Virus record (IMG/VR): IMGVR_UViG_3300035180_000254
Origin: a virus
Strand: one strand, 5' to 3'
Length of the DNA: 64,000 nt
This document shows, in pieces, positions 56,029 to 56,298 of this stretch (positions are counted from its first letter, which is position 1; the number at the start of each line of letters is the position of its first letter). The notes beneath the pieces are model-generated. The model was not told the DNA's origin. It made no database searches and saw only the letters and a program-made list of their open reading frames with translations. Made by a program: the position numbers and the translations under genes.

Positions 56029-56298
56029 TCAACCCTCGCCGTAGCCGGAGCCGTTGCCGTTGCCGTAGCCGTAGCCGTTGCCGTTGCCGTAGCCGGAGCC
56101 GTAGCCGGAGCCGGAGCCGTTGCCGTAGCCGTTGCCGTAGCCGGAGCCGTAGCCGGAGCCGGAGCCGAAGCCGGAGCCGTTGCCGTTGCCGTTGCCGTTG
56201 CCGTTGCCGTAGCCGTTGCCGGAGCCGAAGCCGGAGCCGTTGCCGTTGCCGTTGCCGAAGCCGGATTCTTCGGCGAACTGCTTACTTTTTGAAGCCAT
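56029..56298 (-). CDS. glycine-alternating (X-Gly)39 repeat protein
   Basis: AAGGAG RBS 7 nt before the ATG at 56298. An 11-aa N-terminus MASKSKQFAEE is followed by 39 uninterrupted X-G dipeptides, where X is N, S, Y or F (E in the last). Confidence 0.65.
   Translation of the reverse strand: MASKSKQFAEESGFGNGNGNGSGFGSGNGYGNGNGNGNGNGSGFGSGSGYGSGYGNGYGNGSGSGYGSGYGNGNGYGYGNGNGSGYGEG
56032..56265 (-). repeat. perfect 6-nt periodic coding repeat (NNC-GGC)n
   Basis: The plus strand reads (gcc + gta/gga/gtt/gaa) repeatedly. 38 of the 39 Gly codons are GGC, and each X residue uses a single codon. Confidence 0.9.

Follow-up and report, generated by a model that had tools for sequence, protein, structure and literature searches.

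The 64,000-nucleotide stretch of DNA from IMG/VR virus record IMGVR_UViG_3300035180_000254 that was analysed here (the window) carries on its minus strand a small gene whose product consists, after a short leader, of 39 X-Gly (XG) dipeptides. This gene almost certainly is protein-coding and belongs to a two-gene cassette that we define from about 80 loci of phages, prophages and metagenome-assembled genomes (MAGs), in which a gene of the family DUF6948 (PF22253) is followed directly by an (X-Gly)n gene. The DUF6948 protein has a predicted Sm/LSm-like fold, and we propose, with a probability of roughly 0.45, that the XG protein is a detached, disordered low-complexity tail of this Sm-like protein, acting by the mechanism outlined further below. 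In the window, the DUF6948 gene lies upstream, and the XG gene overlaps it, has its own start and Shine-Dalgarno (SD) sequence, encodes a leader and ends at the repeat, as in other members of the cassette. The features concerned are the following.

56029..56298, minus strand: gene of the (X-Gly)39 protein, 89 codons plus TGA stop; the start is backed by homologues beginning with MASKNK and by the spacing of the ribosome-binding site (RBS)
56266..56298, minus strand: N-terminal leader MASKSKQFAEE, 11 codons, a possible docking motif; the motif is kept in relatives
56032..56265, minus strand: hexanucleotide array of 39 units (NNC GGC) encoding (X-Gly)39
56306..56311, minus strand: SD sequence AAGGAG of the XG gene
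56282..56740, minus strand: DUF6948 (PF22253) partner gene with predicted Sm/LSm-like fold; maximal open reading frame (ORF), 152 aa
56300..56554, minus strand: predicted Sm-like β-barrel core (DUF6948 domain, residues 63–147 of the 152-aa ORF), from Pfam, AlphaFold2 and Foldseek

The DUF6948-XG cassette

Translation of the ORF 56298..56029 gave MASKSKQFAEE followed by 39 unbroken X-G dipeptides. An earlier note on this DNA, made from its letters alone, was correct on this point as well as on the codon usage and the AAGGAG RBS. The X positions are encoded by AAC (N, 15 times), TCC (S, 11), TAC (Y, 9), TTC (F, 3) and GAG (E, once), and the Gly positions by 38 GGC and one GGT. Tandem Repeats Finder reported the array at 56038–56263 with a period of 6, 37.7 copies and a score of 256, and found it to be the only one of its kind within the window. 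The AAGGAG motif (56311–56306) is separated by 7 nt from the ATG at 56298. From this ATG on, the XG gene shares 17 nt with the 3′ end of the ORF upstream (stop 56284–56282), and the downstream gene begins 3 nt past the XG stop. This overlap and the SD sequence, together with the conserved geometry in relatives, bear out the proposal of a real gene coupled to its upstream neighbour. All nine Tyr residues lie in G-Y-G triplets, accompanied by three G-F-G triplets, and no signal peptide, hydrophobic or amphipathic segment was found in the protein.

A megablast search of the region against GenBank phages matched no close relative. A word-seeded HMMER search with the window protein retrieved 34 small proteins of 70–149 aa, all containing (X-Gly)n tracts with Ser, Asp, Tyr or Asn at X and joined to a few recurring N-terminal domains. 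In one of them, P0007, the N-terminal part is homologous to the gene upstream of XG in the window, and both match DUF6948. In each DUF6948-encoding GenBank phage examined, the next downstream ORF encodes an (X-Gly)n protein. Thus, the ORF of Pectobacterium phage Koroua comprises 89 aa, overlaps by 17 nt and ends in GYGEG as in the window, and Koroua relatives carry it too; that of Ralstonia phage NK-7 comprises 137 aa and is annotated as 'fibroin heavy chain-like protein' (XCO36015.1); and that of Vibrio phage IKEMa6-1 comprises 101 aa. In Iodobacter phage PhiPLPE (EU876853), an unannotated 81-aa XG ORF lies at 1164–1409 between gp84 and gp83, directly after the DUF6948 gene gp84, and such low-complexity ORFs are probably under-annotated in general. 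The search for homologues in phages that the earlier note had suggested was therefore productive, with relatives in the Koroua group, NK-7, PhiPLPE and IKEMa6-1. Its remark that it knew of no described phage early protein of this type stands for the literature, in which we found nothing relevant on DUF6948, XG sequences, phage proteins called 'fibroin heavy chain-like', Gly-rich proteins of low complexity in phages, or a phage pair of an Sm-like and a Gly-repeat protein. It does not stand for the databases, which hold a large conserved family with members in deposited phages, the cassette genes being listed there as hypothetical, named by composition or missed.

When an alignment of DUF6948 was used to scan IMG/VR, 71 loci emerged, and 75 loci were compared in all. 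Three of them (L005, L016 and L039) end 1, 51 and 31 nt past the DUF6948 gene, respectively. In the remaining loci, in which more than about 60 nt follow the DUF6948 gene, a same-strand run of at least eight X-Gly units follows directly downstream of DUF6948 in all but L072, where the downstream ORF contains a degenerate GIGLGLGVGCGLG stretch instead. A scan of a genome collection yielded only seven MAG loci, six of which show the pairing; the closest, from Ramlibacter sp., reaches 70%, and the host assignment is therefore not confident. Four XG proteins whose N-terminal domains are longer and unrelated (P0005, P0016, P0023 and P0009) are also encoded directly after DUF6948 genes, in phage and prophage regions of an early or regulatory kind; P0001, with an internal XG tract, is an exception. 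Clustering of the neighbouring ORFs in the 75 loci revealed no third conserved gene beside the cassette, the largest neighbour family occurring in 7/75, and the cassette is therefore a self-contained two-gene unit, often found near recombination and replication genes.

Variant arrangements were also observed. In L017 (3126–3707), the XG part is a short (XG)11 run that continues in frame into an unrelated C-terminal domain. Variant cassettes occur in L069, L071, L073, L075, L058 and L023, several loci carry two to six tandem XG tracts or ORFs, and in L071 some XG tracts precede the DUF6948 gene. XG tails are found on other small N-terminal domains as well (P0002–P0004, P0006, P0009, P0012, P0017, P0019, P0028, P0031; P0011, P0014, P0027; P0281), including those with the patterns 'T..DV...GAC..GV', 'AADWxEExG', which we take to resemble TIGR02996, and 'G.HF...C..GLHFC'. 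With several N-terminal domains as its carriers, the tail therefore acts like a portable module.

In all loci, the XG ORF begins at a start codon of its own, and it mostly overlaps the DUF6948 stop by 8–20 nt in the +1 frame; the other junctions are abutting and in frame (L070, L074), in the +2 frame or separated by gaps of 4–92 nt. An SD-like motif precedes 56/77 XG starts (73%) compared with 13% of random ATGs, and in the clade of the window it is part of the codons for a conserved A-K-E-S-I stretch in the gene upstream. The own starts and the mixed junction geometry speak for translational coupling and not for a conserved programmed frameshift. A +1 frameshift at TTC-AAA-AAG-TAA fusing both ORFs was considered and rejected, because an ATG and SD sequence of its own precede XG everywhere, and because of the in-frame, +2-frame or spaced junctions of L070, L074, L052, L002, L058 and L073.

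At the N-terminus, relatives share the motif M-A/P-S/T-K/N-(N)-K-x-F/W-x-x-G, in leaders of about 10 residues that are alike within clades (MASKNKTFTDG, MATNKTWRSG, MPKHVFRSG, MSKLNKP...); the window has MASKSKQFAEE where its relatives have MASKNKTFTDG. The order of the X residues is not conserved among XG proteins, which end 0–2 residues past the last X-Gly; the ending GYGEG of the window protein recurs in L010 and L012 as well as in Koroua. Composition was compared over 82 non-redundant arrays, in which X is Ser in 37%, Tyr in 29%, Asp in 24%, Asn in 4% and Phe in 2%, and the longest unbroken run varies from 8 to 65 units, with 30 as the median. The window array, with 38% N, 28% S, 23% Y, 8% F and no Asp, is the most Asn-rich and least acidic of the arrays compared and a compositional outlier, retaining Ser and Tyr and having Asn in place of Asp. 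The net charge of its protein is −1, whereas the family averages −7. While the tail is normally acidic, the window copy thus appears to be a neutral variant rich in Asn.

These data bear on the idea that the XG protein is a processed Gly-rich peptide of the microcin type or of the ribosomally synthesised and post-translationally modified kind, or else a secreted or structural silk-like fibre. The likeness to such products is superficial and compositional, and the fibroin-derived name of the NK-7 protein is its other recommendation. However, no maturation, export or immunity gene is conserved beside the cassette in the 75 loci, Cys is absent from the window array and accounts for about 0.1% of X across the family, and the leader is only about 10 residues long and lacks a signal peptide. 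Moreover, the X residues are bulky or polar (Tyr, Asp, Asn, Ser), unlike the Ala/Ser of crystalline silk, and the gene lies in replication and accessory regions, outside the structural modules. We consider this explanation very improbable. The earlier note, which had raised the silk-type and secreted or microcin-type readings, finds no backing for either, while its own observation that leader and maturation genes are lacking nearby agrees with the 75-locus comparison.

Predicted fold of the partner

The maximal ORF of the partner probably overstates its length, as the true start is likely the ATG at 56656 (MNIEELTLKQ..., 124 aa), which is preceded by an AAGGA RBS at 56668–56664; this start is favoured because homologues begin at the equivalent Met. 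The protein matches PF22253 with E = 1.8e-28 and 98.9 bits (cutoff 27), and the DUF6948 family comprises more than 1,300 clusters at 90% identity. An AlphaFold2 model built from a 31-sequence alignment reached a mean predicted local distance difference test score (pLDDT) of 86.5 and consists of a helix, three long bent strands, a short helix, two more strands and a C-terminal helix, in keeping with the Sm pattern of an N-terminal helix and a strongly bent, five-stranded β-sheet. When this model was compared with the PDB using Foldseek, the top 50 matches were all Sm/LSm proteins (archaeal SmAP, Lsm1-7/2-8 and spliceosomal Sm), with E-values of 1.5e-3 to 9e-3 and target-normalised template-modelling (TM) scores of up to 0.71. 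In BFVD, the matches were other members of DUF6948 along with phage proteins that are uncharacterised. The XG protein on its own gave a pLDDT of 36 without secondary structure from single-sequence input, a result consistent with intrinsic disorder.

Protein-level constraint, array turnover and genomic setting

Each of the 82 arrays uses essentially one Gly codon, GGC being dominant in 72, GGT in 4, GGG in 4 and GGA in 2, and GGC dominates even in loci of 36–46% GC. GGC together with C-ending X codons is favoured regardless of genome GC, a preference that could stem from translational optimisation, shared unit ancestry or a slippage bias at the DNA level. When the Gly codon switches, only the X-Gly frame survives, and all other frames change. 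The retention of Gly across these switches, the conserved ATG, SD sequence, leader and stop position, and the in-frame fusions together show selection on the protein. What selection keeps is the alternating Gly, the X set Ser/Tyr/Asp (with Asn and Phe in the window phage), the Lys/aromatic leader and termination at the repeat end; it keeps neither the order nor the number of units.

The same data weigh on the explanation that the ORF is incidental and that the repeat matters solely at the level of DNA or RNA, be it as a hotspot of recombination or slippage, as a structured RNA or as the variable region of a diversity-generating retroelement. The extreme codon uniformity, the GGC preference at low GC and the confinement of unit-to-unit variation to codon positions 1–2 of X speak for it. 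Against it stand the GGT, GGG and GGA arrays, which retain Gly yet alter every other frame, as well as the conserved translation signals and the in-frame fusions to a folded domain. In addition, an Rfam search matched no family, the RNA of the repeat is predicted to fold less stably than its shuffled counterparts (z = +2.2), and no second (template) copy of the array exists within the 64-kb window. The variable-region version was rejected for want of this template repeat, and no reverse transcriptase turned up among the window ORFs scanned, a scan that covered the large ORFs only. An element of this kind is barely credible as the sole function, and the earlier note's caveat that the repeat might work purely as DNA is contradicted by the retention of Gly across GGC, GGT, GGG and GGA arrays.

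The uniform codons within each array and the pattern of variation fit rapid unit turnover (concerted evolution), and the arrays turn over through in-frame slippage or recombination. Three metagenomic contigs are 99.2–99.97% identical to the window, and two of them carry the identical 39-unit array. The third, L078, whose flanks are 99.97% identical, shows a clean in-frame deletion of 126 nt (21 units) that leaves 18 units, or else an assembly collapse. Unit turnover gains direct support from this contig, and the proneness to length variation foreseen by the earlier note is borne out, with 18 units in L078 and 39 in the window. Contig L076 (99.2% identical; 4668–6398) diverges from the window past position 55015, where it continues with two more small ORFs and a phage integrase (PF00589) in place of the window's phosphoesterase gene (54497–55018). 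This is a mosaic breakpoint, and it hints at temperate close relatives.

With a GC content of 60%, the window represents the genome of a tailed phage and encodes a P22-like portal, a capsid protein, Pol A, an SNF2 helicase and a D5-type primase-helicase; its portal shares 44% amino acid identity with those of Pseudomonas phages KPP25 and phiR18, a distant kinship. The XG gene lies in the minus-strand replication and accessory, i.e. non-structural, block, with genes for a NinX-like protein and the phosphoesterase around the cassette, and internal promoters and terminators in the region were in no excess over shuffled expectation. Directly after XG, two small minus-strand genes (55756–56025 and 55523–55759) share a ...TLRAAA(E/Q)QALEAL... 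motif. Neither matches any family, and BLASTP of the pair gave only a weak match covering the start of the motif (E = 0.055); they may be distant paralogues. A second in-frame repeat of the same operon, the 9-nt unit GGTGGCTAG in 4.2 copies at 55243–55280, encodes ...ATLATLATLATLATA... within the minus-strand ORF 55015–55344, which specifies a 109-aa protein two genes downstream of XG.

Three further features of the window were recorded. An AT-rich intergenic stretch at 61600–61700, upstream of the primase-helicase operon, contains iterated TATAC(C/T)TATAC motifs (period 14 at 61620–61656 by Tandem Repeats Finder) and could be a promoter/operator region or an origin. A plus-strand ORF of 2,321 aa at the end of the structural block (24350–31315) has no Pfam match; like proteins of KPP25-like podoviruses, its product could be internal to the virion or injected. 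Overlapping tandem repeats with periods of 21, 24 and 72 on the plus strand at 10600–11263 encode an Ala/Thr/Gly-rich segment inside the 746-aa structural ORF 9687–11927.

Proposed role and comparison with known systems

A full-library HMMER search with P0007, itself a fusion, uncovered further natural fusions of DUF6948 to Gly-alternating tails in P0155, P0156, P0157, P0159, P0184, P0202, P0208 and P0251, a reversed fusion with an N-terminal XG part in P0204 and a tandem DUF6948 duplication in P0165. Pairing with DUF6948, and at times fusion to it, reframes the possible function of the XG protein. By analogy with the tails of other Sm-fold proteins, the XG protein would dock on the Sm-like protein via its conserved leader, and the pair would form a multivalent assembly of a ring with Tyr 'sticker' and Gly-Ser-Asp 'spacer' tails, comparable to the Hfq C-terminal region, the Arg-Gly (RG) tails of SmD1, SmD3 and SmB, and the LSm4 tail. 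Early in infection, it might then tune the binding of nucleic acid, probably RNA, or bring about structures of higher order or of a condensate-like kind.

Several points weigh against this detached-tail interpretation and keep it slightly below even odds. The physical interaction of the two proteins, the formation of a ring and the binding of RNA are putative only, being drawn from analogy. The structural match is modest in its E-values, and small β-barrels are a common shape. Neither the Pfam LSM nor the Hfq models matched DUF6948 at E ≤ 0.1, inspection by eye revealed no obvious conservation of the canonical pocket residues (Asn of Sm1, RG of Sm2), and a PDB sequence search with the DUF6948 profile gave nothing significant; Sm is therefore a fold assignment and not a family membership. 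The disorder signal of the XG protein is weak evidence because a single sequence was used, and only the position of the XG gene suggests that it is expressed early. Finally, the net charges of DUF6948 and XG proteins do not co-vary (Spearman rho 0.04, n = 65), which counts mildly against a simple electrostatic tail-core model.

The charge of the tail is also central to a rather unlikely alternative, in which the acidic, aromatic chain is a decoy or inhibitor of a host factor that mimics nucleic acid or, as a 'slippery' or sticky substrate, jams a host machine, with the Sm-like protein as its adaptor or stabiliser. The machine in question might be Hfq/RNase E, a chaperone, an AAA+ protease or a defence protein that binds nucleic acid. 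Strong acidity is found in most of the family, as the mean net charge indicates; the composition of its members is kept while their sequence is not, as mimicry or a decoy would predict, and the cassette lies among accessory early genes, as the NinX-like protein and the phosphoesterase illustrate in the window. However, the nearly neutral window copy, lacking Asp, shows acidity to be dispensable at least there, and a decoy alone does not explain the recurrent fusion to an Sm fold. Searches with defence/anti-defence and NCBIfam models gave no matches, which likewise lends the decoy no support.

A lack of matches to toxin, antitoxin and defence families tells equally against a toxin/chaperone pair of the toxin-antitoxin or abortive kind, in which an aggregation-prone, toxic XG peptide would be solubilised or neutralised by the co-translated Sm-like protein. 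Two small coupled genes that travel together through many genomic contexts would suit such a pair, and Gly/Tyr-rich peptides elsewhere can be antimicrobial. Nevertheless, covalent fusions in both domain orders are atypical of toxin-antitoxin pairs, and the XG protein has neither a hydrophobic or amphipathic segment nor a signal peptide, making this pair improbable and less plausible than the decoy.

Returning to the detached tail, a more speculative and rather doubtful extension is that the Sm-like ring and its fast-evolving, separately encoded tail co-assemble early in infection into an RNA-containing condensate or fibrillar scaffold. Transcripts could be sequestered or protected in it, or replication and recombination organised, while tail length and chemistry (acidic Asp versus neutral Asn) would tune its material properties. 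The self-assembling or condensate-forming scaffold that the earlier note had listed among its possibilities is compatible with our observations.

If the proposal is true, a small β-barrel and its tail make up a compact two-gene system present in many phages, both of Proteobacteria and of other phyla, which would offer a simple natural setting for the role of repetitive disordered tails in Sm-fold proteins and would bear on how phages use low-complexity proteins to build assemblies in bacteria. DUF6948 gains a predicted fold and an apparently obligatory partner, XG ORFs deserve annotation instead of low-complexity masking, and the cassette is a clear example of in-frame hexamer arrays evolving via unit turnover under compositional selection.

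Among known systems, Hfq offers a close parallel. In Acinetobacter baumannii, the GGFGGQ repeats of Hfq are needed for normal RNA binding and fitness, and repeat number matters (PMC11617691), while the Hfq C-terminal region self-assembles into amyloid-like structures (PMC12257945). Like the A. baumannii protein, with its acidic tip, and the C-terminal region of the Escherichia coli protein, the cassette combines an Sm-fold core, here predicted, with a repetitive, Gly/aromatic-rich extension, likewise predicted to be disordered, whose end is often acidic. In contrast, the cassette mostly supplies its tail as a second, translationally coupled polypeptide that brings a leader of its own, the repeat is a strict dipeptide and not a hexapeptide, and the DUF6948 core has no sequence similarity to Hfq, with RNA binding and a hexamer only putative for the cassette.

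The eukaryotic Sm/LSm proteins, with the RG tails of SmD1, SmD3 and SmB and the Q/N-rich or RGG tail of LSm4, provide the best structural match through their Sm fold, and SmD1 has a dipeptide (GR)n tail. The Q/N-rich tail of Lsm4 promotes the assembly of processing bodies and ribonucleoprotein granules (PMC2064791), and the Asn-rich array of the window is, like that tail, compositionally prion-like. Unlike the basic eukaryotic tails, the cassette tail is acidic or neutral, and it belongs to a phage protein without sequence-detectable homology to them. Within phages, the T4 early proteins GoF, MotB.1 and Frd.2 have an AlphaFold-predicted LSm-like fold and a suspected post-transcriptional role (PMC12152347). 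They resemble the DUF6948 protein in being small phage proteins with such a predicted fold; however, they represent a different family, have no reported Gly-repeat partner or tail, and DUF6948 is not mentioned in PMC12152347.

Silk fibroin, with its (GAGAGS)n repeats, shares the alternating Gly periodicity, GY and GS units included. By contrast, X in the XG proteins is mainly Ser, Tyr, Asp or Asn, and these proteins of 25–140 aa are cytoplasmic and lack a signal peptide. A PDB sequence search with the XG protein returned compositional matches only (such as GR20 and ribosomal S10 tails), and as the XG protein has no homology to fibroin, the database name reflects composition only. Tyr in G-Y-G with Gly, Ser, Asp or Asn spacers is the sticker-spacer grammar of FUS-type domains, tied to phase separation and hydrogels. 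The XG proteins resemble the [G/S]Y[G/S] domains of FUS in their many such triplets and their Gly/Ser-rich, predicted-disordered context, but differ from them in their strict two-residue periodicity, far shorter chain, lack of Gln and Pro and bacterial-virus setting, any phase behaviour being putative. Combined, these comparisons suggest that the cassette would be a split-gene, strict-dipeptide, phage-borne version of its nearest known counterpart, an Sm, Hfq or LSm core that bears a low-complexity tail.

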